A stretch of DNA of 27,486 nt, taken from IMG/VR virus record IMGVR_UViG_2909282993_000005; one strand, written 5' to 3'. This document shows positions 1,285-19,178 of the stretch, one piece after another. The stretch's first letter is position 1, and each line of letters begins with the position of its first letter. This stretch comes from a virus. Lineage: Duplodnaviria > Heunggongvirae > Uroviricota > Caudoviricetes. Under the pieces are notes generated by a model. The model was given only the letters and a program-made list of their open reading frames with translations, was not told the DNA's origin and ran no database searches. Both the position numbers and the translations under genes were made by a program.

Positions 1285-2330
1285 AATTCACAGATGTTTT
1301 TTCTCATTCTGTGGTTTCCTTGGCGCTTTCTAGGTTTTTTCAGATAGTTACATTTTTTCAAAAGCATCCTGAGTTCGATCTTACTATCTATCTGTGGCCT
1401 ATTTCTGTCCCATATATGCCCCAAAAAACACCCCAACAGATAAGCAATCTTTTCATGGTGTTACGCGTAAAAACAATAACGGCTTGAAATTATTCAATAC
1501 ACTCTCGAAAGTGCATCAGCCAACCGCAGAACGTTATTGCATACAACGTTTCTGCGGCATATCACGAAACGATTACTTAATGACTGGGACTTCAGACCAC
1601 TCAATATCCGGTACAATTATGTATCAACGCAGTTTAACAACACCCTATATTTAATCCAGAGTGCGAGCAACGTTGTCCCTTTCTCTTTTGCACTCTTAAA
1701 ACATACGATTACTTAAGTGAAGATGCTTGACGAATCGCCAAATAAAACATCTTCATCAGCATAAAAATCCATATATGATTGAAAATTTAGTCATTAATAC
1801 CATTCATATCTGAATACTAACCTAATACGCTTACTAACCGTGAGAAATCTTTTTTTTCGACTTAATCACTCGAAATAAACTTTCACTCAATTGAAAACAA
1901 TTAGCTACAATTATCATTGCAATATCAAATCAAACATAACAACTTGCATAAATTCTCATGGGATACAGCATCAGTTGTGCCAAATACATAAGGAATTGAA
2001 ATGGACGGAGAAAGCTTTAACTTTGATGACAATGATATTGAATTTATTGCTTCAATGTATGCATCATGTAAATTATCAGGAAGTATCGCCCCCATAATGC
2101 ATATAATGGTTAGCATTCCAAAAAATAAGAAAAAACAATTCTACGAACGAGTTGAGCATTATTGTAGTTTATATTCCAATAAAAACCCACCTTCTTAAAT
2201 TCGCTGCATTCTAGTGGATTCCATTAAGAAAACAATGACATACACTCAAACACATCTTTTTTATCAACAGTGAATTTCAGTTCGGCCAGTTTTTACCAGC
2301 TATTATAAAAATAGCACCCATATAAAGTTT

Positions 2331-2436
2331 TTACCCCACAGGTACAGCTGGCCATTCGATAACCGCACTAAGGAAGTGCCAACACGACATCAGCAAGACC
2401 CGATATTTCTTCCATGCCGCCAGCAACGATGTTAAG
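2331..2436 (-). pseudogene. Remnant of the 3' end of a second tail fiber assembly (tfa) gene
   Basis: About 80 bp at 2340..2420 are clearly similar to the 3' end of the intact tfa at 3035..3115. The minus-strand translation ends ...[10 protein letters not shown]...IEWPAVPVG*, matching the Tfa C-terminus, with a disrupted middle. Confidence 0.45.
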
Positions 2437-2901
2437 GTTAAATTAATTATAAAAAAATATATTATAATTCCATCTTCGCATTAAATTTTAACCTTTAATC
2501 TCCACACGGAACAAGTTGCATAGGTGACTATATTAAGAAAACTTATAACCACCAAAAAGATTTGCTTTGCAAGCAAAAACAGTGACCATTGACTCTAAGA
2601 AAATTCCGATCTATTGTTAGTGTCATCAAAGTTACTTAACAGTATTCCGAAATGAAAATACAAAGCAAGCTAATTGTCTTATTAAACATTATCATTGCAT
2701 TTATATTATTTGAGCTTTTAGCTCAAAAATTTGGTTTGAGTACATTATTTTAAAGCAAGATAAACAATATCGGGCACTCTAGTTTTTATAATTAACAATT
2801 AAACGCCCATAAAATGTTATTTACTTTTCTTCGCTATTGTCATATCTTAATATAGTGGCTTACGCCACTCTACTTTCATCATATTTTGTACGTTTATGTA
2901 C

Positions 2902-3018: not shown

Positions 3019-3600
3019 TTACCCTATAGGTGCTACTGGCCATTCAATATCCGGTGCAGTTGTTGTATTAACACGGTTCAGCAACACCCGATACTTCTTC
3101 CAGGCTTCCAGCAACGAGATTTCTTCCTCCGTTGCAATTTCCAGATCTGCAGCATCCTGAAGCGGCGCAATATGCTCACTGGCTACCTGCATCAGGTTGT
3201 TTTTTGTTTCTTCCGCCTCCCGGATCCGGAACAGTTTTTCTGCTTCCGTATCCTTCACCCAGGCTGTGCCGTTCCACTTCTGATATTCCCCTTCCGGCGA
3301 TAACCAGGTGACATTTTCCGGTAACGAGCCAAGTTCAGAAATAAATAACGCGTCGCCGGAAGCCACGTCATAGACGGTTTTTCCCCGATGATCTTCAACG
3401 AGATGCCACGATGCCTCATCACTGTTGAAAACAGCCACAAAGCCAGCCGGAATATCTGGCGGTGCAATATCGGTACTGTTTGCTGGCAGACCTGTATGAG
3501 GCGGAATATATGCGTCACCTTCACCAATAAATTCATTAGTTCCGGCCAGCAGATTATAAATTTTTATGGTCCGTGGTTGTTCACTCATTCTGAATGCCAT
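3019..3600 (-). CDS. Tail fiber assembly protein (Tfa family)
   Basis: 193-aa ORF starting [54 protein letters not shown] and ending [13 protein letters not shown]...IEWP, characteristic of lambdoid TfaQ/TfaR/TfaE proteins. Its start overlaps the stf stop. Confidence 0.85.
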
Positions 3601-4193: not shown

Positions 4194-4468
4194 CGTTTTT
4201 GATTATTCCCGCACACTCACGCAGAAGGAATTCCCCGTCGGGCTACGGTCATGGTTAATGCGGGAATACGGCGACGATACAGCGCAGCTAAAAGGGTAAT
4301 GGACAGAAAGAGCGGTTTATTTCATTCCACAGGATTCTGAGTGTCCCCAACTTCCTCCAATAGTCTGAGCGTACACCTATATAGTTTTAATTTTCATCAA
4401 TCCATTTAACTATCGTTTAATTGTTGTCACATAGGATTCCGCCGTTTTTAACAATGCAGGATAATAAG

Positions 4469-4762
4469 ATGAAAAAAATGTTGTTTTCTGCCGCTCTGGC
4501 AATGCTTATTACAGGATGTGCTCAACAGACGTTTACTGTTGGAAACAAACCGACAGCAGTAACACCAAAGGAAACCATCACCCATCACTTCTTCGTTTCG
4601 GGAATTGGACAGGAGAAAACTGTTGATGCAGCCAAAATTTGTGGCGGCGCAGAAAATGTTGTTAAAACAGAAACCCAGCAAACATTCGTAAATGGATTGC
4701 TCGGTTTTATTACTTTAGGCATTTATACTCCGCTGGAAGCGCGTGTGTATTGCTCACAATAA
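4469..4762 (+). CDS. bor: Bor lipoprotein (serum-resistance / outer-membrane lipoprotein of lambdoid phages)
   Basis: 97-aa product MKKMLFSAALAMLITGCAQQTFTV...GIYTPLEARVYCSQ with lipobox LITGC and an AGGA RBS. It is on the opposite strand to the lysis genes, as in lambda. Confidence 0.85.
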   Translation: MKKMLFSAALAMLITGCAQQTFTVGNKPTAVTPKETITHHFFVSGIGQEKTVDAAKICGGAENVVKTETQQTFVNGLLGFITLGIYTPLEARVYCSQ

Positions 4763-6214: not shown

Positions 6215-6610
6215 CTAACCTCGCATGTCAAAGCCAGATTTCTGAAAATCTCTGTAGACTTCCGGATTGTTGAAGGCCGGAAATTTGGCTTTATGAGCTG
6301 CGGACTTTATCGCTTCGCAATAGGCTTTATCACCGTTACTGGTAGATATTTTTAACGCCGTGCCATCCTGAGAGAATTCCATATGCAACCTGCATTTTTT
6401 CCCTTTCCAGTTATGCGGCTCATCAAGTTTGGCATTAATTGCAGCTCTGATTCCCCGCGCTTGCGCCCCCCATTCATCCTGATCATCCCAGCGTCCTGAA
6501 CTGCAACTACCTGTAGCAGTAGTTTTGTGGCAATCTGAAGGGTGTAAAGGTGTGCATCCCGCAACAAAACCGACCCAAAAAGTCAACATAACGATTTTCT
6601 TTAATCCCAC
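6215..6610 (-). CDS. Lipoprotein with TolA domain-III-like C-terminus (moron)
   Basis: 131-aa ORF with signal peptide and lipobox (FVAGC). The C-terminus KKCRLHMEFSQDGTALKISTSNGDKAYCEAIKSAAHKAKFPAFNNPEVYRDFQ resembles the TolA C-terminal domain (GKTCTLRIKLAPDGMLLDIKPEGGDPALCQAALAAAKLAKIPKPPSQAVYEVF, from recall). Confidence 0.7.
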   Translation of the reverse strand: MGLKKIVMLTFWVGFVAGCTPLHPSDCHKTTATGSCSSGRWDDQDEWGAQARGIRAAINAKLDEPHNWKGKKCRLHMEFSQDGTALKISTSNGDKAYCEAIKSAAHKAKFPAFNNPEVYRDFQKSGFDMRG

Positions 6611-6760
6611 TTCTTGCTCCTCAATCCATTAAAATCTCAGCAATAGTAGTTGTTACGTCCGCCACTGGCTCAGAGCTGACTATCCGCTAAATTTAGCTCA
6701 GTGCCGTAGCTGTGTCAGAACAAACCTAAGCCGAAACCGTTTATTACAAAACAATAAATA

Positions 6761-7189
6761 TCAGGGTTTAAAATCCAGCACCCCATTTTGAAATACTTTA
6801 TATACTTCCGGCGAAGGGGGGGCAGGTATATCAGCATTCTTTATCGCATTCATCGCTTCACGACATAAATCGAGGTCTCCACTTTCTCTTTTAACCTCCA
6901 GTAGAAGGCCATTCGGGGCCATATGCATTCTCAGTGTACACTCTTTTCCTGAATACTTACTCGCATCCCCGAACTGTTTTTCGATGGCGCTCTTGATTTG
7001 ATGGGCATACAGACGGATATTCTCACTAACATCAGAAGTACGTTCAGATGAACTCACATACTGTGTCTCTATTGCTTTATCGGAGTAATATGATGTACGG
7101 TCATGATAATTTGTCGATACAGCATCAGTGCACCCGATAATAATCCCACTAATAATCAACGTAAGAATTGATGCGCTACGAAAACCCAT
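6761..7189 (-). CDS. Lipoprotein with TolA domain-III-like C-terminus (paralog of 6215..6610)
   Basis: 142-aa ORF with lipobox (IIIGC). The C-terminus GKECTLRMHMAPNGLLLEVKRESGDLDLCREAMNAIKNADIPAPPSPEVYKVFQNGVLDFKP closely parallels the TolA C-terminal domain and the neighbouring ORF. Confidence 0.7.
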   Translation of the reverse strand: MGFRSASILTLIISGIIIGCTDAVSTNYHDRTSYYSDKAIETQYVSSSERTSDVSENIRLYAHQIKSAIEKQFGDASKYSGKECTLRMHMAPNGLLLEVKRESGDLDLCREAMNAIKNADIPAPPSPEVYKVFQNGVLDFKP

Positions 7190-7306
7190 TTTTCCTCACA
7201 TATGTCATATAGTAAAGGATTATATATACCGTTGTTTTGGACGCTCAAACAGCGAATCAGATCAAATAAAACGCACATTTGTTAACATTTACACAAAGTC
7301 TGCGTG

Positions 7307-7327
7307 GGATATTCTGAAAGAATATCC
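7307..7327. promoter_or_regulatory. 21-bp perfect palindrome ggatattc-tgaaa-gaatatcc (candidate dimeric regulator binding site)
   Basis: Read directly: 8-bp inverted arms around a 5-nt spacer, about 120 bp upstream of the lipoprotein gene start at 7189. No T-run, so not a terminator. Confidence 0.3.
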
Positions 7328-7722
7328 ATAATGTGGAGAGAATCTATTGAAGTGCATGGTGCCGGGTGCCTCCCGGTGAATTCAGTACCAGCACCTGAAT
7401 CCGCGATTATCCCATATACCTACTCGCTGATTGCCCCTCCGCACAGGGGGATTCACCATGCCAGTTTCTTTTAACAAACTCCCCGCAAACCAGAGAACAG
7501 TCAACCGCCTGAATTGTGAAGTATTTAAAAATTTCTCCCGCTAACTGATACCCGGCTAACAGTCTGGCGTTTTCTTTTTCAGCAACGGGAAAGCAACAAC
7601 CACCACACCCGCCACCAGCACACCGTCAGCCAGCACTGACATTATCCGGCTGCTGCAATGCCATTCACAAAAACAGTAAGCAATCACTTTTTACCGTAAC
7701 AGGTGATAATCCAGATATGTAT

Positions 7723-8076
7723 CTACCCCAGATGAGTAATCCGAAGTTCATCCATACCACAGGTCCTGGCTATTCTGTTGTACTCCTGAACAAGAGCAAA
7801 TAATTCTGAATTAGCAACCATGAACTCATCGCAAACCCTCTGTATAGCATCACTATTCAGAAGAATAACGTCTCTTCCCGAAAGACGATCAGGAGTACAG
7901 AACAAAACTGTCAAACGGCTGAAGGCCTTTGCTCGTGCTGCATTGACTATATCAATACGCTGCCTAAGGATGAAACACCCCGACGCCTCATCAATATTCA
8001 CTCTACCCACACCATATGAATGATAAATATTTAATGCTGAAAAAACCATTAGACCGTATAACAAACACTCAATCAA
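7723..8076 (-). CDS. Hypothetical protein (moron between phage tRNAs and lysis cassette); start codon uncertain (TTG at 8076 or internal ATG at 8049)
   Basis: 117-aa ORF with no recognisable motif. Its position matches the accessory slot used by stx in Stx phages. Confidence 0.3.
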   Translation of the reverse strand: MIECLLYGLMVFSALNIYHSYGVGRVNIDEASGCFILRQRIDIVNAARAKAFSRLTVLFCTPDRLSGRDVILLNSDAIQRVCDEFMVANSELFALVQEYNRIARTCGMDELRITHLG

Positions 8077-8186: not shown

Positions 8187-8263
8187 TGGCGCGCTGTACT
8201 GGATTCGAACCAGTAACCGATTGCTTAGAAGGCAATTGCTCTGTCCGGCTGAGCTAACAACGC
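8187..8263 (-). tRNA. tRNA-Arg (anticodon UCU)
   Basis: 77-nt cloverleaf GCGTTGTTAGCTCAGCCGGACAGAGCAATTGCCTTCTAAGCAATCGGTTACTGGTTCGAATCCAGTACAGCGCGCCA. 7-bp acceptor stem, T-loop GGTTCGAATCC, anticodon loop CTTCTAA (U33, anticodon TCT, A37), encoded CCA. Confidence 0.85.
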
Positions 8264-8367
8264 TGAATACCGATAATGGACCGCTATCGGGGACCCGCCC
8301 CCCCCCGCACCAACAACCCTGTTATCGTGTCGTCTGCTCTTCCTGATAAGCTCATGGCGGTTTGTGA

Positions 8368-8443
8368 TGGTGGCCCTTGCTGGATTTGAACCAGCGACCT
8401 GGCGATTATGAGTCGCTCGCTCTCACCACTGAGCTAAAGGGCC
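8368..8443 (-). tRNA. tRNA with CAU anticodon, most similar to tRNA-Ile2 (lysidine type, ileX/ileZ-like); elongator Met not fully excluded
   Basis: 76-nt cloverleaf GGCCCTTTAGCTCAGTGGTGAGAGCGAGCGACTCATAATCGCCAGGTCGCTGGTTCAAATCCAGCAAGGGCCACCA. Anticodon loop CTCATAA; strong resemblance to E. coli ileX from recall. Confidence 0.8.
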
Positions 8444-11444: not shown

Positions 11445-12164
11445 AGCCTGCTTCTCCTTGCCTTTCGGCACGTAAGAGGCTAACCTAGATTTGCCGTTCA
11501 TAGATTGAGCCTCAGATTAATGTTAAGCGTCTTGCAGGACGCGTAATGTTAACTGGGGCTTTTCTCTATCTGCCTTTGGTGTTCATGCCTGAGGCAGATA
11601 GCCTCAAGCACCCGCAGCAATTCTACTTAACTCCCGTCACCTCGCCAATATAAAATCAATCAGAAAGGCGATCCATAAGAACAACAGCAAGACAATAAAT
11701 TGCCATTACAGCCGCAATAGCTAGCGCACATTTGAGAACCAGCACGACAACCTCCTGTATTGGACGTACACCAGTTCTGATAAATATGAGGCTGTCTCAT
11801 CATTGATTCAATATAACTATTGGGTATAGTTTCTGTGATTTTGTTCTGTAGAAATGGAACACAACAACCAGTCACCACCAGCACTTCTTTAAATACGCCA
11901 AGTCCGACGCAAGCTAACCTTCTAGTCCGCTTTGAGCGAGGAGCGGACCAAACCCGGCCAACTGACTCTTAAAGGGGCCGCAGGAATTTTTCGTCTGAAC
12001 TTTCGAAGCTCCTCTCCCTGAAGACAGAAAACTTCTGTGTGCTGTGGGAATATTGAATCTTTGCATTAGATATAAATAATTTTATCCCGCCTGAAGTTTA
12101 CATTATTTTATTTATCTGTTTTTCTAAATCAGACTGCACTCCTTACTTAAATCAGGAGCCAGTC

Positions 12165-13364
12165 ATGCCATTTGTTATTTATGTGTTTACTATCAGTGCC
12201 TTTGCGCTCGGACTCGCGGAATTTGTCCCCATTGGGCTGACAGACGTTATGGCTCAGGGGTTGTGTGTGGGTGTGGAGCAGACCGGGGCAGCGGTTACAA
12301 CCTATGCACTGGGGGCAACGTTCGCGGCACCCGTACTGTCTGCGCTGACAGCAAGCTGGAGCCGGAAAAATGTAATGCTTACAACTGCCGTTGTGTTTAC
12401 TGCCGGTAGTCTGGCGGCCGCGTTTGCAGCCACATTACCTCAGCTCCTGTTAGCGCGGTTCATTGCTGGTCTGGGACACGGCCTGTTTCTGGCTGCGGCA
12501 TCCAGTACCGCAGCTCGTCTTGCTGGACCGGGTAAAGCAGGCAGAGCGGTGGCTGTGGTATTTGGTGGCTTTACTCTGGCGATGGCAATCGGCGTACCGC
12601 TGAGTACATGGTTGGGGGGGGTGGTCTCATGGCGTCCAGTTCTCGGCGCTATTGCCGCTTTTGGCGCGTTCGGATTCCTTGGACTGTTGTTCGGTATGAA
12701 AGATCCCGTACGCAGCGTGCCCGGTGAACATAGTGACTCAGCAATGCAGAATATCGGCATGCTGTTTAACCGTAAGTTGCTGGCCGGCGCGCTGGTTACG
12801 GTGCTGGCGTATGCAGGCTCGTTTACGGCTTACACCTTTATCGCACCTATTCTGACGCAGGTGACAGGGGTTACCGGAGCAAAGGTGAGTCTGTTTATGC
12901 TGGTTTACGGTATTACAGCTGCGGTAGGTAATATTCTTGGTGGGAAACTTACCGACAGCATGGGGGTTAATCGTGCCAATATACTCATCATTAGCGGCAT
13001 TGTTGTTGTCGTGCTTGGTATGTGGCTGCTGTCATCCTCACCGGTGAGCATGGGCATTCTGGTTGCGCTGCTGGGTATGGTGACATTTGCCGCAGTGCCG
13101 GCACTGCAGGCCCGTCTGATTGGTGTCGCTGAGCAACATGCTCCTCATGCGCATGGTGTTGCTGCCGGCCTGAATATTGCGGGCTTCAACTCAGGTATAG
13201 CGCTGGGATCAGTACTGGGCAGCATTACTATAAGCCACGCCGGTATCGTGTATACCGGTATCAGCGGTGCGATTGTTTCTCTGCTCGGCCTGCTGTTGCT
13301 GCTTGCACAAATCCGTCGCAGCCACAGTCGTAAATTTCAACAGGTTAAAATCGTAGGCCAGTAA
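12165..13364 (+). CDS. MFS transporter (12-TM, DHA1-like efflux/sugar-type family); GC-rich gene
   Basis: 399-aa highly hydrophobic ORF with MFS loop motifs; AGGAG RBS. Nucleotide composition is visibly more GC-rich than the flanking phage DNA. Confidence 0.8.
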   Translation: MPFVIYVFTISAFALGLAEFVPIGLTDVMAQGLCVGVEQTGAAVTTYALGATFAAPVLSALTASWSRKNVMLTTAVVFTAGSLAAAFAATLPQLLLARFIAGLGHGLFLAAASSTAARLAGPGKAGRAVAVVFGGFTLAMAIGVPLSTWLGGVVSWRPVLGAIAAFGAFGFLGLLFGMKDPVRSVPGEHSDSAMQNIGMLFNRKLLAGALVTVLAYAGSFTAYTFIAPILTQVTGVTGAKVSLFMLVYGITAAVGNILGGKLTDSMGVNRANILIISGIVVVVLGMWLLSSSPVSMGILVALLGMVTFAAVPALQARLIGVAEQHAPHAHGVAAGLNIAGFNSGIALGSVLGSITISHAGIVYTGISGAIVSLLGLLLLLAQIRRSHSRKFQQVKIVGQ

Positions 13365-13375
13365 AGGGAGGTTAT

Positions 13376-14068
13376 ATGCTTACCCGTGAAAATATGCTTA
13401 ATGGCACATTTGTCAGGGTGCATGAAGCGCTGCTCCCGGCGAATATGCTCTGGGACGCTGAAAAAATACGCGCATCAATGAACTCTACTCTGGAGGAGCG
13501 CCCGACGGGTGCTCCTTTCTGGATATTTGCCTACGGGTCATTGATGTGGAATCCCGTGCTGGCAATTGAAGAAATGCAACGGGCCCGTCTGAAAGGATGG
13601 CAGCGCAGTTTCTGCATTCGTTTGATATCCGGACGAGCGACTCCTGATGTCCCCGGCAGGATGTTATCGCTCGACGAAGGTGGAATTACCGAAGGTATTG
13701 CGTTCAGACTGCCGGAATCGACTCTTATTAATGAGCTGGAAATTGTCTGGACGCGCGAGATGATAACCGGTCTTTACCGTCCGGTCTGGGCAGACGTTTC
13801 GCTAGGAAACGGTGAGGAAATTCAGGCGCTGGCTTTCGTATCAGACAGACTGCATCCGCATTATGAACAGGACAATCTTACAGCGACCGTAGCGTTGAGC
13901 ATCGCATCTGCCCGTGGAGACATTGGCACGAATGCAGATTATGTATGGAAACTGCAGGCCACTCTGGGTGCGTTGGGAATACGGGATGATTACGTGAGTG
14001 AACTGGCCCTTGCTCTGCATGAGGCTCCCTGTAACGATAAACTTCATCAGCGAGGCGCTTCACTATGA
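13376..14068 (+). CDS. ChaC-family gamma-glutamylcyclotransferase-like protein
   Basis: 230-aa product with FAYGSLMWNP and GRMLSLDEGG...WTREMITG motifs matching the ChaC/GGCT fold signature (YGSL catalytic region). Confidence 0.8.
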   Translation: MLTRENMLNGTFVRVHEALLPANMLWDAEKIRASMNSTLEERPTGAPFWIFAYGSLMWNPVLAIEEMQRARLKGWQRSFCIRLISGRATPDVPGRMLSLDEGGITEGIAFRLPESTLINELEIVWTREMITGLYRPVWADVSLGNGEEIQALAFVSDRLHPHYEQDNLTATVALSIASARGDIGTNADYVWKLQATLGALGIRDDYVSELALALHEAPCNDKLHQRGASL

Positions 14069-14946
14069 GCCATCTGAGCCATCTGCGAACGTTTCTTGAG
14101 GCCTATCGCTCTGGCTCCTTTTCAAAGGCGGCAGAACTACTGGGCATCACTCAGCCCGCGGCGTCACAGCATATCCAGTCTCTTGAGACTCTGGTTGGTA
14201 AGCGTCTGTTTATCAGGCAGGCCAGAGGCGTGACGGCAACCGAAGCTGCGGATGAGCTTGCCCGCTCAGTTTCACCCTTCATTGATGGTCTGGAAGAAAA
14301 GCTGTCCTCTTTCCGGTCAGGCTCTGTACACGGGGGAACAATTAATCTGGCAGGACCGCCAGATTTTATTCATTCCCGGCTTGGGACAGTAATGGCTCCA
14401 CTAATGAAGGAGGGGTATCGCCTACGCTTTCATACCGGCAATAAGCAACGTATTTATTCCCTTTTGCATGACGGGAGCGCCGATCTCGCTGTTACCGCAT
14501 CTATGCCTGATGACCGTCTGTACGGCTATGCACATCTACTGACTGAACGCATGCTCCTTGTTCATGCTCCCGCCATGTCAGAGATCATCGGATCAGAACC
14601 TGGTGCTGAAACGCTTGCCTCATTACCGCTGATTGCTTATGACGAAGAGTTGCCACTGATTAGAGCGCTCTGGGCCTCCATGTTTCAGAGAGCCCCTGAG
14701 ATGCAGGCTACATTCACCATTCCGGATTTACGTATTATCCGCGACTTGGTCTGTGACGGCCACGGGTGGACAGTGCTGCCGGATTATCACTGTGACAATG
14801 ACCTGAAAAGTGGTCGCCTGATTTCAGTGACACCTGCAGACCTCGCTCCGACTAATCATCTTTATCTGGTCTGGAACAAAAGGACGGCTAATAACAGCCG
14901 AACCGCCTATGTTCGGGATTACATTCTTAAAACGTTTCCGCGTTGA
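14065..14946 (+). CDS. LysR-family transcriptional regulator
   Basis: 293-aa product with an N-terminal wHTH typical of LysR (LRTFLEAYRSGSFSKAAELLGITQPAASQHIQSLE) and a C-terminal substrate-binding domain. 4-bp overlap with the ChaC-like gene. Confidence 0.85.
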   Translation: MSHLSHLRTFLEAYRSGSFSKAAELLGITQPAASQHIQSLETLVGKRLFIRQARGVTATEAADELARSVSPFIDGLEEKLSSFRSGSVHGGTINLAGPPDFIHSRLGTVMAPLMKEGYRLRFHTGNKQRIYSLLHDGSADLAVTASMPDDRLYGYAHLLTERMLLVHAPAMSEIIGSEPGAETLASLPLIAYDEELPLIRALWASMFQRAPEMQATFTIPDLRIIRDLVCDGHGWTVLPDYHCDNDLKSGRLISVTPADLAPTNHLYLVWNKRTANNSRTAYVRDYILKTFPR

Positions 14947-14990
14947 TGTTTGAAACGGATGATTGGCGATGTGTATCATAAGTTACGTAT

Positions 14991-15020
14991 GTCCGCTTCT
15001 GGCACAAAGCAGACGCCCAC
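14991..15020. repeat. 30-bp imperfect direct repeat, copy A (gtccgcttctggcacaaagcagacgcccac)
   Basis: Matches copy B at 18664..18693 in 24/30 positions, with a 14-bp core GGCACAAAGCrGAC. Lies between the LysR stop and the convergent membrane-protein gene. Confidence 0.5.
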
Positions 15021-15076
15021 TCTCACGCGAATGCTTTGCCCTTGACTTGCCAACAACCGTATCGCTTGCTCCGCAA

Positions 15077-16369
15077 CTATGGTTTTTTATTAGAACCTTC
15101 GCCACTAAATAAATTATAATAAATTGATTTTATTAGATATCTGTCAGAATCTATATGGTCAGCACGAGTAGCATGCTCTAATGTTTCAAATGCTAGGGTT
15201 TGTGCGGCTTCAGCAAAAATTCCAGGCCAACCCTTACTCAGCATCGACAGTCCTTTAAGTACCCTTATCTGAATTTCCCTCATACTGGCACCATCGCGCG
15301 CAACAGGTGAGAAAAAGTCTTCAAGTAGATCGTTATTCTGAAGTGGTGCAACATGTACAGAAGGATATTTCACTTCTATTTCATCAGATTTATTCTGCGC
15401 GTAAGCGGAAAGTATACGTACACCTCTGCCAATGACATCAATGGCGGTTCCAGGATCGTTCACTGCGGGGGAAAGGGCTCGGCAGGCTATTTCGGCCATG
15501 ACGCTAAGACAAAATCGGGGGTCCTGAGCAAATGAACGTACATCCGAGACAATAATCGTCTCAAGTAAATCGGTGCTGATTGATGACTCCTGGCCCTGAC
15601 TCAGGTACAAAACTGGCGTGGACGGATGTATGAAACTGCCCGGCTGCGCCACGAGGTATACATGACGGGGATCATTGGTCAGCAGCTTGCTGAGTTTCAC
15701 CATATCAACATATTCAACATAGCCAATCTTTTTCGGATAAACTGCAACCGTTCCTTTCGGCTGTTCATTGTTCTCAAGCCATGGATATCCGCCGAGACAG
15801 GGATTTCTTGCTCTCGCAATAAATGTTTCGATGGCCGCCTGTTCTACTTTTGCCGTTGTCTCACCAACCCTCCCCAGAGAGGTCAAATGCTGTATCCAGC
15901 GAAGCAATGTGATGAGGATTAAGGCAATGACAACCAGTGTTACAATGAATAAAATGACTCTCCCCCTTTCTCCATAAGCTCCCATATTGAGGGCAATAAT
16001 CCCTACCAGACTGAAGAGAAAAGAACCGATGAAGGTGGCCAGTACATTTTGTGTGGTGACGTCTTCAACAACTAAACGAGTAGCTCTGGGAGTCACATTA
16101 GTAGTGGCTGAACCGTAGGCTGTGACCATGATGCTCAGCGAAAATGTGGTCACTGCCAGCATACTCGATGCCAGTATGTTCAGAATGTTATCGACTGCTT
16201 CCGCACCAACCTTCACGGAAACCGACTCAGGTATCATTGATTTAAAAAGAATTGATAAAAGGGCCGTTATTATTGCGACAATTGCGAATAACGTTGCCCT
16301 GAACCATAGTTTTTTAAATGTCTGCTTCAGCATCCATTTCCAGCGTGAAATCATTCTGCATTCCCTCAT
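15077..16369 (-). CDS. Membrane protein with N-terminal multi-TM region and C-terminal soluble domain (tentatively DUF2254-like); exact start uncertain (alternative Met codons at residues 6 and 13)
   Basis: 430-aa ORF with four predicted hydrophobic helices in the first ~160 residues and a long hydrophilic C-terminus. Family name is tentative recall. Confidence 0.55.
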   Translation of the reverse strand: MRECRMISRWKWMLKQTFKKLWFRATLFAIVAIITALLSILFKSMIPESVSVKVGAEAVDNILNILASSMLAVTTFSLSIMVTAYGSATTNVTPRATRLVVEDVTTQNVLATFIGSFLFSLVGIIALNMGAYGERGRVILFIVTLVVIALILITLLRWIQHLTSLGRVGETTAKVEQAAIETFIARARNPCLGGYPWLENNEQPKGTVAVYPKKIGYVEYVDMVKLSKLLTNDPRHVYLVAQPGSFIHPSTPVLYLSQGQESSISTDLLETIIVSDVRSFAQDPRFCLSVMAEIACRALSPAVNDPGTAIDVIGRGVRILSAYAQNKSDEIEVKYPSVHVAPLQNNDLLEDFFSPVARDGASMREIQIRVLKGLSMLSKGWPGIFAEAAQTLAFETLEHATRADHIDSDRYLIKSIYYNLFSGEGSNKKP

Positions 16370-16417
16370 ATTGCAGCCGGGATAAATAAATGCCGCCTCT
16401 GTGGCGGCATGTTGCTG

Positions 16418-18421
16418 TTAACGAACCAGATGCAGGAAGTGCAGGTGTTTTTCGTACTGGTCCAGTATGTCATTAATCAGCTGTTCCTGATTCCAGCCCA
16501 TTACATCATAATTTTGGCCGCCCTCTTTGAGATAGACTTCAGCGCGATAATATCGATGTTGTTCACTCTGCTGCTCATCATTATCCAGCGCAGCGAGCGC
16601 GAAGGTCGGTGAGTTATACCCGCGAAGCCTCACTTCATATATATAATTCAGCTCGTTGCCCAAATCGACTTCAAGGCGAATACGATCCTCGGCGGCGTCA
16701 CTGATGTGGCTTATCGTTCCCTGCTTGTTAAGTTCCTCCTGAACCAGCGTCATGGCGGGTTGGATAATGTCGTCCATAAAACGTTTCACAAGAGAGCGCT
16801 TCGGCAAATACGCGATATTGCGTAACCTTCTCTGCCAGGGAATTGGGTTACGTGCAGCCGTAGGAGCAATAGTCGCCATGCTAAGGCTTTCACGCTTGGT
16901 CAAATCCCGACGCAGGGCTTTTAACAGTCCGTATATGGATATTAATAAGATAACTGAGAAGGGCAATGCACTCGCTATCGTTACGGTTTGCAACGCACTC
17001 AGCCCCCCTGCGATCAGCAGGGCAATAGCAACAACGCCCATGAGCGATGCCCAGAAAATTCGCTGCCAGACGGGCGTGTTTGCCACCCCACCTGATGCCA
17101 GAGTATCCACAACCATTGCCCCCGAATCAGCAGACGTTACAAAGAAGACGATGACCATCGCCATTGCAATGAATGACAGCACGGAAGAGAACGGGAAATG
17201 CTCCAGGAAATTAAACAGGGCAAGCGCAACATCCTGCTGAACGGTATTGGCGAGGTCAGTGGCGCCCTGGTTCATGATGAGATAGATGGCGCTGTTTCCA
17301 AACACCGTCATCCACATGAGCGTAAAGCCGGCGGGAACAAACAACACGCCAGTCACGAACTCACGAATTGTCCTGCCGCGGGAAACGCGTGCAATGAACA
17401 TACCTACAAACGGCGACCATGAAAGCCACCATCCCCAGTATAATAATGTCCAGCCCCCCAGCCAGTTGCTCGACTTGGGTTCATACGCGTAAAGGTTGAA
17501 CGTTTTACTCACCAGTTCCGACAGATAACCACCCGTATTTTCCACAAATGACTTCAGCAGAAGCACAGTGGGACCCAGGCACAAGACCAGCGCCAGGAGC
17601 AACACCGCCAGGCCCAGATTAAGCTCAGACAGGATGCGTATTCCCTTGTCCAGGCCGGACACCACCGAAATCGTCGCTAACCCCGTGATGACCACGATCA
17701 AAATGACCTGTACCGTTTCATTGATGGGCACGCCGAAAAGATGGTTCAAACCGGCATTCACCTGCAATACACCGTAACCCAGTGATGTTGCAACGCCAAA
17801 GACAGTGCCTATCACGGCGAAGATATCAACCGCGTGGCCTATAGGCCCGTAAATGCGATCGCCGATAATGGGATAGAGCGCAGAACGCAGCGTTAAAGGC
17901 AGACCGTGACGGTAACTGAAAAAGGCCAGAATCAGCGCCACGATGGCATAAATTGCCCATGCGTGCAGACCCCAGTGGAAGAACGTCAGGCGCATGGCTT
18001 CCTTCGCTGCCGCAACGGTCTCTGGAGTGCCGACAGGTGGCGAAAGATAATGCATCACAGGTTCGGCAACGCCAAAGAACATCAGGCCGATCCCCATCCC
18101 TGCCGAAAAAAGCATCGCGAACCAGGAGTGGTAGCTGAAATCAGGCTGCGCATGGTCTGGGCCCAGCTTTATATCACCGTAACGTGAGAGTCCAAGGAAC
18201 GTGACGCTCAGTAAAATCAGGGCCACAGCAAGTATGTAGAACCAGCTGGCATTCGTGAAGATTTGTTGCTGAAGTAGTTTAAAATTTTTGTCGGCGACAT
18301 CCGGGAATACGGCGGCAAAGGCGACAAGAAGGAAAATTAGCAAAGCAGATGTAAAGAATACCGCTTTGTTAATCTGGCTTGTAGACTTCTTTGGGGTTGT
18401 ATCATTTTCACTCATAATCAT
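16418..18421 (-). CDS. BCCT-family transporter (BetT-like choline/betaine/carnitine transporter)
   Basis: 667-aa product with BCCT signature regions (WTLLYWGWWLSWSPFVGMFIARVSRGRTIREF) and the C-terminal DILDQYEKHLHFLHL tail typical of BetT. Confidence 0.85.
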   Translation of the reverse strand: MIMSENDTTPKKSTSQINKAVFFTSALLIFLLVAFAAVFPDVADKNFKLLQQQIFTNASWFYILAVALILLSVTFLGLSRYGDIKLGPDHAQPDFSYHSWFAMLFSAGMGIGLMFFGVAEPVMHYLSPPVGTPETVAAAKEAMRLTFFHWGLHAWAIYAIVALILAFFSYRHGLPLTLRSALYPIIGDRIYGPIGHAVDIFAVIGTVFGVATSLGYGVLQVNAGLNHLFGVPINETVQVILIVVITGLATISVVSGLDKGIRILSELNLGLAVLLLALVLCLGPTVLLLKSFVENTGGYLSELVSKTFNLYAYEPKSSNWLGGWTLLYWGWWLSWSPFVGMFIARVSRGRTIREFVTGVLFVPAGFTLMWMTVFGNSAIYLIMNQGATDLANTVQQDVALALFNFLEHFPFSSVLSFIAMAMVIVFFVTSADSGAMVVDTLASGGVANTPVWQRIFWASLMGVVAIALLIAGGLSALQTVTIASALPFSVILLISIYGLLKALRRDLTKRESLSMATIAPTAARNPIPWQRRLRNIAYLPKRSLVKRFMDDIIQPAMTLVQEELNKQGTISHISDAAEDRIRLEVDLGNELNYIYEVRLRGYNSPTFALAALDNDEQQSEQHRYYRAEVYLKEGGQNYDVMGWNQEQLINDILDQYEKHLHFLHLVR

Positions 18422-18663
18422 TTATTCCATTAATTAAATCCGCACTGGATAGAAGGTACTACCTCTCACAGAGTAGCAAAGTTCAACTGGCTATGCGGGG
18501 TTAATCGGAATGCATGGTGGAATGAGTGCCGATACAAATCATCCTATATTCTAAGGAGTTTTAAGTTACTCAGCCTGCCAATTACTGGGGCATTTAATTT
18601 GTATGATCTGTATCAAAGCTGGGATATAAGTTAAGTGAAGTATATTAGGCACGAATTACCAGC

Positions 18664-18693
18664 GTCTGCTCTTGGCACAAAGCGGACAACCAC
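18664..18693. repeat. 30-bp imperfect direct repeat, copy B (gtctgctcttggcacaaagcggacaaccac)
   Basis: See copy A. Lies between the BetT-like start and the first phage replication-module ORF. Confidence 0.5.
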
Positions 18694-18755: not shown

Positions 18756-19178
18756 TCACTTCAATAAATACCGAACATCCCCCTGATAAAACGACAATAT
18801 GCGCTGCATAACTTCGCTCTTCCGGCACTCGCGACAGATTATGTTTAGGCGACTGTCGTAGCGACGTATTTCTCCGTCAGGTAATGACCAGATAAGGTCC
18901 GGATCAACCACAACCGGTTTCTTCAGCTTTGCCCTCGATAATTTTTTGCGGGCATTTTGCCAGTCTTTACGAGCCTGTTCAGACGGGAATAACCCGTAGC
19001 CAGAATTGTATACATCGCCACTGGCAACCAGCTCTCTGGCCAGAACGCTCATCAGATATCTTGTTGCCCCAGTTTTAGCTTCCAGTTGTCGTAACGTCTC
19101 GCGCCCACTCTGGCGTACGAGTTCAAGAACCTGCCCTTTAATTTTTTCCCGCTCTTCTTGTGTAAAAACTTTTGCCAC
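18756..19178 (-). CDS. Hypothetical phage protein downstream of the replication initiator (P-position of lambda, but too short to be a helicase loader)
   Basis: 140-aa ORF with a strong AGGAGG RBS. C-terminal CRECRK motif; no recognisable domain. Confidence 0.5.
   Translation of the reverse strand: MAKVFTQEEREKIKGQVLELVRQSGRETLRQLEAKTGATRYLMSVLARELVASGDVYNSGYGLFPSEQARKDWQNARKKLSRAKLKKPVVVDPDLIWSLPDGEIRRYDSRLNIICRECRKSEVMQRILSFYQGDVRYLLK

Follow-up and report, generated by a model that had tools for sequence, protein, structure and literature searches.

How do genes for transport and metabolism come to lie in the middle of a prophage, and by what route could such cargo be exchanged? The question is raised by a block of five genes in a viral stretch of 27,486 nucleotides (nt) (IMG/VR record IMGVR_UViG_2909282993_000005), referred to here in its full length as the window. 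An MFS transporter, a ChaC-family gamma-glutamylcyclotransferase and a LysR-type regulator are followed in this block by a DUF2254 membrane protein and a BetT-type choline transporter. The division of the block into two cassettes, A (11925–15014; MFS-ChaC-LysR) and B (14991–18687; DUF2254-BetT), with breakpoints at three 24-bp dyads (J1, J2 and J3; Table 1), is well supported. The explanation that we favour for the locus as a whole, and hold to be fairly probable, is that these two cassettes occupy a variable slot of a Qin/Rac-type prophage and are swapped by recombination at the dyad core, with the cargo roles proposed below.

The prophage is a defective Qin-type lambdoid element of Escherichia coli, located between a truncated ydfJ and an integrase gene next to rspB, and is without head and tail genes in the RefSeq annotation. 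The five open reading frames (ORFs) at 12165–18421 are confirmed at the coordinates given in the first-pass annotation of this DNA, and the same five genes are annotated by RefSeq in 100%-identical E. coli chromosomes, e.g. that of O169:H41 strain 2014EL-1345-2. The 6.3-kb non-phage block that this annotation had placed between hok and the replication module is real, with hokD/sok on its left and DUF977 and the replication genes on its right, and K-12 indeed carries relBE/flxA at the same place, as had been expected of Qin-type prophages. The flanks are in normal lambdoid order, running from hokD to Q on one side and from DUF977 through replication and cI/cro genes to int on the other. When both phage flanks were joined as one query and searched against 5426 complete E. 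coli genomes, other prophages were found that keep both flanks with different DNA between them, namely ~950 bp of unannotated sequence (strain M3), QueH (strain DE17) or relBE/flxA (K-12), and the viable lambdoid phage Tritos has a different gene in the same slot. The full block (A and B) is present in 295 of the 5426 genomes (~5%), and no record in the sequenced-phage collection carries it in full. The block is accessory cargo within one prophage and not chromosomal backbone, in agreement with the earlier proposal of cargo embedded in a Qin-type prophage. The opposite scenario, in which conserved chromosomal backbone is enclosed by two independent prophage remnants, is refuted because the flanks stay contiguous around other cargo both in E. 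coli prophages and in Tritos; the small share of genomes with the block, the relBE/flxA genes of K-12 and the lambdoid gene order likewise speak against it. Nothing was found in its favour, other than that a defective prophage devoid of head and tail genes could superficially suggest fragments, and we leave this scenario practically no probability.

Base composition does not contribute to this conclusion. The MFS gene is more GC-rich (54.7%) than the rest of the prophage (47%), as had been noted, but its composition is no mark of the foreign origin that had been read into it, because the phage genes for DUF968 (54.2%) and for a 358-aa replication protein (53.9%) are about as GC-rich; DUF2254 lies at 44.8%. 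GC and third-position GC (GC3) per gene were dropped as evidence of foreign cargo, as cargo and phage genes are not separated by either.

The block had been taken for a single unit, whereas it consists of two independently mobile cassettes joined at a 24-bp dyad, each of which occurs alone. Cassette A is found without B on a Klebsiella IncF plasmid (NZ_LR890357, 92.7% identity), and more distant syntenic MFS-ChaC-LysR copies (65% DNA identity) are found on other Klebsiella plasmids; copies like A, 89% identical in ChaC, are surrounded by ordinary metabolic genes in the chromosomes of Pantoea rwandensis and an Enterobacter sp. Cassette B is found without A at 99.8% identity on ~68 plasmids, hosted by E. 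coli, Shigella, Klebsiella and Enterobacter (the one examined being IncY), on more than 1300 mostly Klebsiella plasmids at ~93% (in the one examined, an IncFIB/IncFII plasmid, the module adjoins sil genes), in ~1600 E. coli chromosomes at ~94% (in a leuX tRNA island in the one examined) and at one end of a prophage in Enterobacter asburiae (88.6%). In this last case (L146, 5178–9366) tail-fibre genes and a Pin-like invertase precede the BetT-DUF2254 pair at the far end of this other prophage, and a dyad-bounded DUF2971 cassette comes after it. Within the slot of the present prophage, B follows five different first cassettes, i.e. A and four others. In E. coli itself A is present in 296 genomes and accompanied by B in 295, nearly all copies being ≥99% identical; because A is almost never without B there, and the copies are so similar, the A+B combination in E. 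coli looks like one recent arrangement.

The limits of both cassettes coincide with the dyads. A strict pattern search finds exactly three copies in the 27.5-kb window, all at cassette edges, whereas a shuffled 50-kb control locus gives 0–1 matches even with ≤5 mismatches allowed; the chromosomal flanks of the prophage are free of dyads. Each dyad is built from arms of ~9 bp around a conserved asymmetric core, and two sub-types can be distinguished: type 2 has a TGGCAC core, and type 1 is an inverted variant in which 21 of 24 positions are identical to the reverse complement of type 2. It follows from the type-1 sequence of J1 that cassette A has 24-bp terminal inverted repeats; cassette B is framed by two type-2 sites in direct orientation. 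On the Klebsiella plasmid, similarity to A sets in at J1 and goes no further than J2. For B, the matches of the IncY, leuX and Enterobacter copies begin at J2, and that of the IncY copy ends with the end of J3. From the phage side, homology to prophages with other cargo ends at 11947–11949, with divergence after J1, and resumes at 18665 in strain M3 and in the QueH variant. A degenerate fourth dyad (GTCCGCCACTGGCTCAGAGCTGAC, window 6657–6680, 5 mismatches to type 2) sits between two morons with TolA C-terminal domains (6215–6610 and 6761–7189), and the same copy recurs in other prophage contigs, which hints at a second cargo slot, of greater age, close to the lysis genes.

Capture of the cargo by composite transposition with insertion sequences (IS26, IS1, IS3) would offer another route into the prophage. 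It can point to the leuX-island copy of B and to that on the Klebsiella IncFIB/IncFII plasmid, which are older copies, IS-flanked and cut by IS3 and IS1, to an IncY plasmid region that is rich in IS26, IS1 and ISKpn19, and to two IMG/VR contigs in which what is presumably IS3 lies directly against a J3-type dyad. In these contigs (L116 and L128) the dyad has directly at its outer edge the repeat TGATCTTACCCAGC..., presumably the terminal repeat of an IS3-type element, which suggests an insertion next to the site. At the three junctions of the window, however, there is no IS or IS remnant, and the IncY copy of B has the dyad-to-dyad limits of the window and is not IS-bounded there. Composite transposition is thus a very improbable source of the present arrangement, and we return to exchange at the dyads as the preferred reading; IS elements nevertheless also move B, because its older copies are IS-flanked.

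Other readings of the dyads were considered and rejected. A hairpin or terminator is disfavoured by weak fold energies (−3 to −7.2 kcal/mol, z ~ −1) and by the lack of T-tracts after the dyads; a terminator scan lists none of the three, the consensus scan finds no canonical terminators at the cassette ends, and Rfam at gathering thresholds reports in the window only sok, DicF, STnc100, IS009 and two tRNAs, with no match to the dyads. Folding this weak speaks against a stable hairpin; a dyad that binds protein would be compatible with it, though the energies are no positive sign of such binding. Judged by eye, a sigma-54 promoter (TGGCAC-N5-TTGC) lacks its −12 element, and both this reading and a resemblance to lambda/P22 boxA/boxB were set aside since the sites also occur between ordinary plasmid genes.

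The dyads are common well beyond this prophage. They occur in 3715 of the 5426 E. coli genomes (median 1, maximum 6 per matching genome) and on 2333 plasmids across Enterobacterales, and a scan of IMG/VR recovers at least 120 stretches with at least 126 type-2 sites. Among the IMG/VR matches listed, to which the following counts of flanks and variants refer, the type-2 sites fall into 54 left-flank and 38 right-flank classes, and for the DUF977 flank alone there are 14 cargo classes on the other side of the dyad. In 14 of 16 classes the left-half variant of a site goes with its left flank, and in 8 of 9 the right-arm variant goes with its right flank; for the DUF977 flank (n = 62), seven left-half variants are seen. 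Because arm variants segregate with their own flank, the exchange point would lie within the invariant TGGCACAAAGC core. The arrangement of the sites obeys a simple grammar: at least 44 non-redundant pairs are of the order type 1 inverted, type 2, lie 465 bp to several kb apart and have cargo between them, and at least 11 pairs are of the order type 2, type 1 inverted, merely 12–18 bp apart, at the junction of adjacent cassettes. At least ~30 cassette types were recovered. In the same slot these include DarT with a Macro-domain (DarG-like) partner, an AAA_13 ATPase and an Mrr-type nuclease; further types are a ParA-like set, HAD with NUDIX, an FRG-domain protein, another MFS-hydrolase-LysR set and many proteins without a Pfam match. 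No transposase or recombinase is found among the 20 cassette proteins scanned, which represent 12 of the ~30 types. Two tandem dyad-bounded cassettes, 12 bp apart, are present on the Pantoea agglomerans megaplasmid pAR8b_A (L136, 9252–20028): one of 6.1 kb with an HTH regulator, MFS, LysR, amidohydrolase, DMT and SMP-30 genes, and one of 4.6 kb with LacI, aldo/keto reductase and AraC genes, the pair being located beside a prophage remnant with Ail/Lom and tail-fibre genes. A dense family of repetitive extragenic palindromes (REP) in Pantoea was rejected as an explanation, since six sites lie in one 40-kb stretch and none in another 50 kb of plasmid.

A cassette common to otherwise unrelated backbones is found in two families of temperate phages. 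Among sequenced phages the dyad is found in the lambdoid phages Tritos, Evi and mEp460 and in P2-like phages, and a HAD-NUDIX cassette is 99.3% identical over all of its 1490 bp, from outer dyad edge to outer dyad edge, between a lambdoid prophage contig (L112) and P2_4C9. In P2_4C9 this cassette (L151, 4537–6026) occupies the Z/fun position, between the tail fibre assembly gene G and the sheath gene FI; in the lambdoid hokD-to-replication slot it is the commonest cassette (11 loci among the matches listed). orf44 of phage Wphi is bounded by dyads likewise. In the P2-like backbone a perfect 9-bp inverted repeat lies just outside the dyads (AATCTGACA before and TGTCAGATT after the cassette; L151 4528–4536 and 6027–6035, L154 around 3391–3399 and 4581–4589), and Yersinia phage P37, which is without cargo, is also without the whole stretch including this repeat. 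K-12 Qin (L135) has degenerate dyads at 6902–6925 and 7893–7916, the former within the ORF annotated as 'ydfV', a short way upstream of relB, and the latter after flxA, so placed that the K-12 flxA segment resembles a cassette with dyad edges that points the other way. On its relB side the K-12 flank (AGTGATCACCGTTCT) is identical to what comes after J3 on the IncY plasmid, beside that plasmid's own relB.

We propose that cassettes with the layout type 1 inverted, cargo, type 2 are gained and swapped by recombination inside the invariant dyad core. Such core exchange would explain how cassettes can be shared edge to edge by lambdoid prophages, P2-like phages, plasmids and islands that have no other homology. 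A circle with one perfect site may integrate into a resident site and leave reciprocal hybrids at J2 and J3, and the arms of these two sites are indeed swapped as expected from such an event: the left arm of J3 (GTCTGCT) is the perfect partner of the right arm of J2 (AGCAGAC), and the left arm of J2 together with the right arm of J3 forms the perfect GTCCGCT/AGCGGAC pair typical of a resident site. The recombination mechanism itself is one that we infer, and a dedicated site-specific enzyme and short-homology recombination by RecET/Red-type functions are both candidates. Several observations weigh against this proposal. Neither a recombinase nor a transposase gene accompanies the cassettes or stays consistently nearby, and the candidates for a linked recombinase (the IncY tyrosine recombinase, a Serratia Integrase_1 protein, K-12 ydfW/ydfX and DUF968) were dropped, as none is consistently associated. 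The near-identity over 24 bp could equally serve homologous recombination of the Red/RecET type, and since this gives the same breakpoints, site-specificity is not demonstrated. The Klebsiella copy of A carries the AGCAGAC arm at its left dyad, which is at odds with simple circle integration, and no empty slot with a single site is found among the 5426 E. coli genomes. To these may be added the weak folding of the dyads and the IS-flanked older copies of B. That the dyads constitute a cassette-exchange system common to mobile elements of Enterobacterales, operated by a recombinase in trans or by short homology and linking lambdoid, P2-like, plasmid and island slots, is offered as a tentative generalization, which we judge possible rather than probable.

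A rival account treats the dyads as passive elements that are carried along with genes. In such an account the dyads would be extragenic palindromes of the type of REP sequences and bacterial interspersed mosaic elements (BIMEs), or else regulatory or terminator elements, and exchange would proceed through homology of flanking phage genes or by illegitimate events. The strictly alternating sub-types and the doublets with 12–18 bp spacing that are seen here resemble E. coli BIMEs with their Y and Z units, and also REPIN doublets. The sites are also intergenic, J2 lying between convergent genes, and the missing dedicated recombinase is what passive palindromes would lead one to expect. However, where backbones have nothing else in common (lambdoid, P2-like, IncF, IncY), their homology ends at the dyads, the arm variants segregate with their own flank, and the copy number per genome is low, with no site in the second Pantoea plasmid stretch; neither T-tracts nor calls of the terminator scan are seen at the three dyads. 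Passive palindromes are hence an unlikely explanation, and recombination at the core remains the one that we prefer.

Comparison with known systems places the dyads close to several of them and within none. Lambdoid and P2-type phages have morons and hotspots of variable gene content, such as relBE/flxA in K-12 Qin and the P2 Z/fun and old/tin loci (Rousset et al. 2022, PMC9122126). As cargo, the block belongs to this class, which it resembles in being non-essential, probably independently transcribed cargo at a fixed position between modules that varies between near-identical phages. Morons and hotspots often encode defence or toxin–antitoxin genes, whereas the cargo here is for transport and metabolism, comprises several genes in two units and has 24-bp dyad edges that are common to plasmids. 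The pdif modules of Acinetobacter plasmids, which depend on XerC/XerD and whose dif site reads GGTGCGCATAA-TGTATA-TTATGTTAAAT (11-6-11), likewise carry no recombinase of their own and have short dyad sites, with arms around a 6-bp centre, that alternate in orientation and occur on unrelated replicons. In contrast to these, the present site (GTCCGCTTC-TGGCAC-AAAGCGGAC) has by eye no similarity to the dif sequence and measures 24 rather than 28 bp, adjacent cassettes are parted by a doublet with a 12–18 bp spacer instead of a single shared site, and the sites are present in phages. Integron cassettes also form arrays delimited by imperfect palindromes (attC) with crossover within the site, both half-sites of a cassette thereby deriving from one parental site, which the arm swap of J2 and J3 would fit, but there is no IntI in the window or in neighbouring loci, the sites are 24 bp and not 57–141 bp long and have no R/L (RYYYAAC/GTTRRRY) boxes, and dyad cassettes bring regulators and putative promoters of their own. 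With REP/BIME and REPIN elements the dyads have in common imperfect palindromes of ~24 bp, two alternating sub-types and short-spacer extragenic doublets; unlike REP/BIME they are low-copy and confined to mobile elements and accessory regions, and their sequence is not known to resemble E. coli REP. The dyad system thus belongs to none of pdif modules, integrons and REP/BIME, because a defining test fails in each case: the sequence is not dif-like, IntI and attC are missing, and the copy number is low.

We now turn to the cargo. The five proteins of the block were assigned to families with Pfam and NCBIfam and checked for defence functions with PADLOC. Cassette A has the features of an operon, as had been claimed: all three genes are on the plus strand, MFS and ChaC are separated by 11 nt with GGAGG ahead of the ChaC start, and the LysR start overlaps the ChaC stop by 4 bp (ATGA, 14065–14068). 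The three genes form a conserved unit down to ~65% DNA identity, and ahead of the MFS gene the Klebsiella plasmid, Pantoea and Enterobacter copies also share the stretch in which an A/T-rich dyad overlaps the promoter-like site. Cassette A would constitute a LysR-controlled operon with its own promoter, in which LysR probably controls the operon that contains it. The ChaC protein shares 48% identity with the ChaC that Pantoea encodes in its canonical chaA-chaB-chaC locus; it is a paralog and, unlike canonical ChaC, linked to MFS and LysR genes rather than to chaA/chaB. In an alignment to human ChaC2 it keeps the YGSL motif (FAYGSLMW), and the Glu in TREM, a candidate for the catalytic glutamate, aligns, in this alignment only, with the position that is mutated in ChaC2 entry 6KY1. 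The mutation in that entry is reportedly E83Q. In its family membership and in these residues the protein is like the glutathione-specific enzymes ChaC and ChaC2, and it is predicted to be a cytoplasmic enzyme that degrades glutathione or a related gamma-glutamyl compound. The best NCBIfam matches of the MFS protein are the efflux families Cmx/CmrA, SotB-like, AraJ and NepI, all below the family cut-offs, and that of LysR is ArgP/LysG, also below cut-off. Judging from these relationships, cassette A most likely handles glutathione or a related gamma-glutamyl compound, and the MFS protein more likely moves a related small molecule outward than inward. The first-pass annotation had suggested uptake of a gamma-glutamyl compound, an idea that is weakened because the MFS protein resembles exporters; it is not favoured either by a LysR protein nearest to the ArgP/LysG regulators of exporters, or by a linkage of MFS to ChaC that is shallow.

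The second cassette carries, as had been described, a convergent membrane protein and a BetT-like transporter, which are DUF2254 and BetT, both on the minus strand. The transporter is a genuine BetT-type protein: it scores 752 bits against the NCBIfam BetT model (cut-off 695) and fails the glycine-betaine model (593.5 against 650), and its residues 6–666 align to residues 7–667 of Pseudomonas syringae BetT in cryo-EM entry 8YBQ (E = 4e-193), with the C-terminal regulatory domain included. P. syringae BetT is an osmoregulated choline:H+ symporter of the BCCT family whose structure was solved by cryo-EM (PMC11323884). By homology, the mobile protein would be an osmotically activated choline:H+ symporter that adds choline uptake to the bet pathway of the host, and the choline taken up may feed the host BetA/BetB route to the osmoprotectant glycine betaine. 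Unlike the E. coli and P. syringae proteins, it is a second, mobile copy that is unlinked to betIBA and always accompanied by DUF2254 in Enterobacterales mobile elements. An AlphaFold2 model of DUF2254 (pLDDT 80) has N-terminal membrane helices and a well-modelled C-terminal domain, and no informative match to solved structures is obtained by sequence or fold. DUF2254 stands alone in Pantoea, Serratia, Alcanivorax, Paraburkholderia and Cellvibrio; the DUF2254-BetT pairing is specific to Enterobacterales mobile elements and is not conserved beyond them.

These functional assignments have their own counterweights: for both cassettes they derive wholly from homology, the linkage of MFS to ChaC is lost at 50–55% ChaC identity, and that of DUF2254 to BetT is restricted in lineage. 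An altogether different function would be anti-phage defence, with the five genes as an unrecognised system, and the company of DarT with its Macro-domain (DarG-like) partner, the AAA_13 ATPase and the Mrr-type nuclease in the same slot elsewhere would be in keeping with this. None of the five proteins matches a PADLOC defence model, however; they belong to clear transport, metabolic and regulatory families, and the MFS-ChaC-LysR trio has close relatives in Pantoea and Enterobacter chromosomes, where their neighbours are ordinary metabolic genes. We attach very little credence to a defence function and keep to transport and metabolism as the preferred roles.

Table 1. Coordinates of the two cassettes, their boundary dyads and the adjoining phage genes in the window.
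Feature	Coordinates	Strand	Basis
Toxin gene hokD with antisense RNA sok, left flank of the cargo slot on the phage side	11289..11613	-	RefSeq; Rfam sok 111.7 bits
Dyad J1, type 1, GTCCGCTTTGAGCGAGGAGCGGAC, left edge of cassette A	11925..11948		Strict pattern search and alignment ends
Sigma-70-like promoter TTGAAT-16-AATAAT with A/T-rich dyad ATAAATAATTTTAT, possible LysR box, ~85 bp upstream of the MFS start	12053..12080	+	Consensus scan
MFS transporter, 399 aa, DHA1-like	12165..13364	+	Pfam MFS_1, E = 2e-42
ChaC-family gamma-glutamylcyclotransferase paralog, 230 aa	13376..14068	+	Pfam ChaC PF04752, 121.6 bits against a cut-off of 21
LysR-type regulator, 293 aa	14065..14946	+	Pfam HTH_1 and LysR_substrate, both above cut-offs
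Dyad J2, type 2, GTCCGCTTCTGGCACAAAGCAGAC, A/B junction between convergent gene sets	14991..15014		Strict pattern search and alignment ends
DUF2254 membrane protein, 430-aa ORF (RefSeq start 16354, 425 aa)	15077..16369	-	Pfam DUF2254, 310 bits
G+C-rich hairpin with T-rich tail, terminator- or attenuator-like, between betT and DUF2254	16390..16410	-	Consensus scan
BetT-type BCCT choline transporter, 667-aa ORF (RefSeq start 18415, 665 aa), with C-terminal osmoregulatory extension	16418..18421	-	Pfam BCCT; NCBIfam BetT
Dyad J3, type 2, GTCTGCTCTTGGCACAAAGCGGAC, right edge of cassette B, directly adjoining the replication module of the phage	18664..18687		Strict pattern search and alignment ends
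DUF977 gene, phage-side right flank of the cargo slot	18756..19178	-	Pfam DUF977

The remainder of the prophage is laid out as follows. The block is preceded, in order, by tail-fibre remnants, iss, lysis genes, TolA-like morons, two tRNAs, Q, RusA, DUF968 and hokD/sok, and is followed by DUF977, replication genes, a YdaT-like gene, cro/cI-like genes, dicF/dicB, exonuclease, xis and int. The iss/bor-type gene for a serum-survival lipoprotein (window 4421–4762) adjoins the lysis cassette, with two TolA-domain genes upstream; all of these are additional morons of the prophage. The two tRNAs, a tRNA-Arg(tct) and a tRNA with a CAT anticodon (Ile according to RefSeq), lie between the Q gene and the lysis region, and Rfam places STnc100 and 'IS009', both small RNA (sRNA)-like elements, in the late region; the tRNAs and sRNA-like elements are at window 8187–8443, 7300–7490 and 3059–3257. 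Between ydfJ and the tail-fibre remnant, window 1661–2851 is a 1.19-kb AT-rich segment (~31% GC) with no ORF longer than 68 aa, which is missing from the otherwise identical O169:H41 reference; there, ISVsa5 is present in the tail-fibre region instead.

Taken alone, the cargo consists of ordinary prophage accessory genes, i.e. a second, mobile choline transporter and a regulated transporter–enzyme pair. The route by which modules are exchanged between P2/P4 hotspots and plasmids is stated to be unknown in a 2026 study (PMC13586616). Recent papers on hotspots do not mention boundary sites of the present kind, and no description was found in the open-access literature when searched by concept; a literature search by dyad sequence returned chance matches only, and a possible precedent (PMC2801613) was rejected, as it concerns unrelated attO repeats at tRNA-Asn. 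The novelty of the site itself is uncertain. An article of 2004 by Nilsson et al. reportedly deals, to go by its title, with a site-specific mechanism for the variable loci of P2, and may describe the P2-side sites; if it covers the Z/fun side of P2 only, then the breadth of the system, its two-type grammar and the core crossover interval would be new. The most interesting result is the grammar and reach of the dyads, which bound swappable cargo in two unrelated families of temperate phages and on plasmids. The dyad provides a simple sequence tag for finding such cassettes and the uncharacterised proteins that they carry and, if the proposed exchange is true, it would offer a testable account of how modules for defence and metabolism pass between mobile elements that lack flanking homology.

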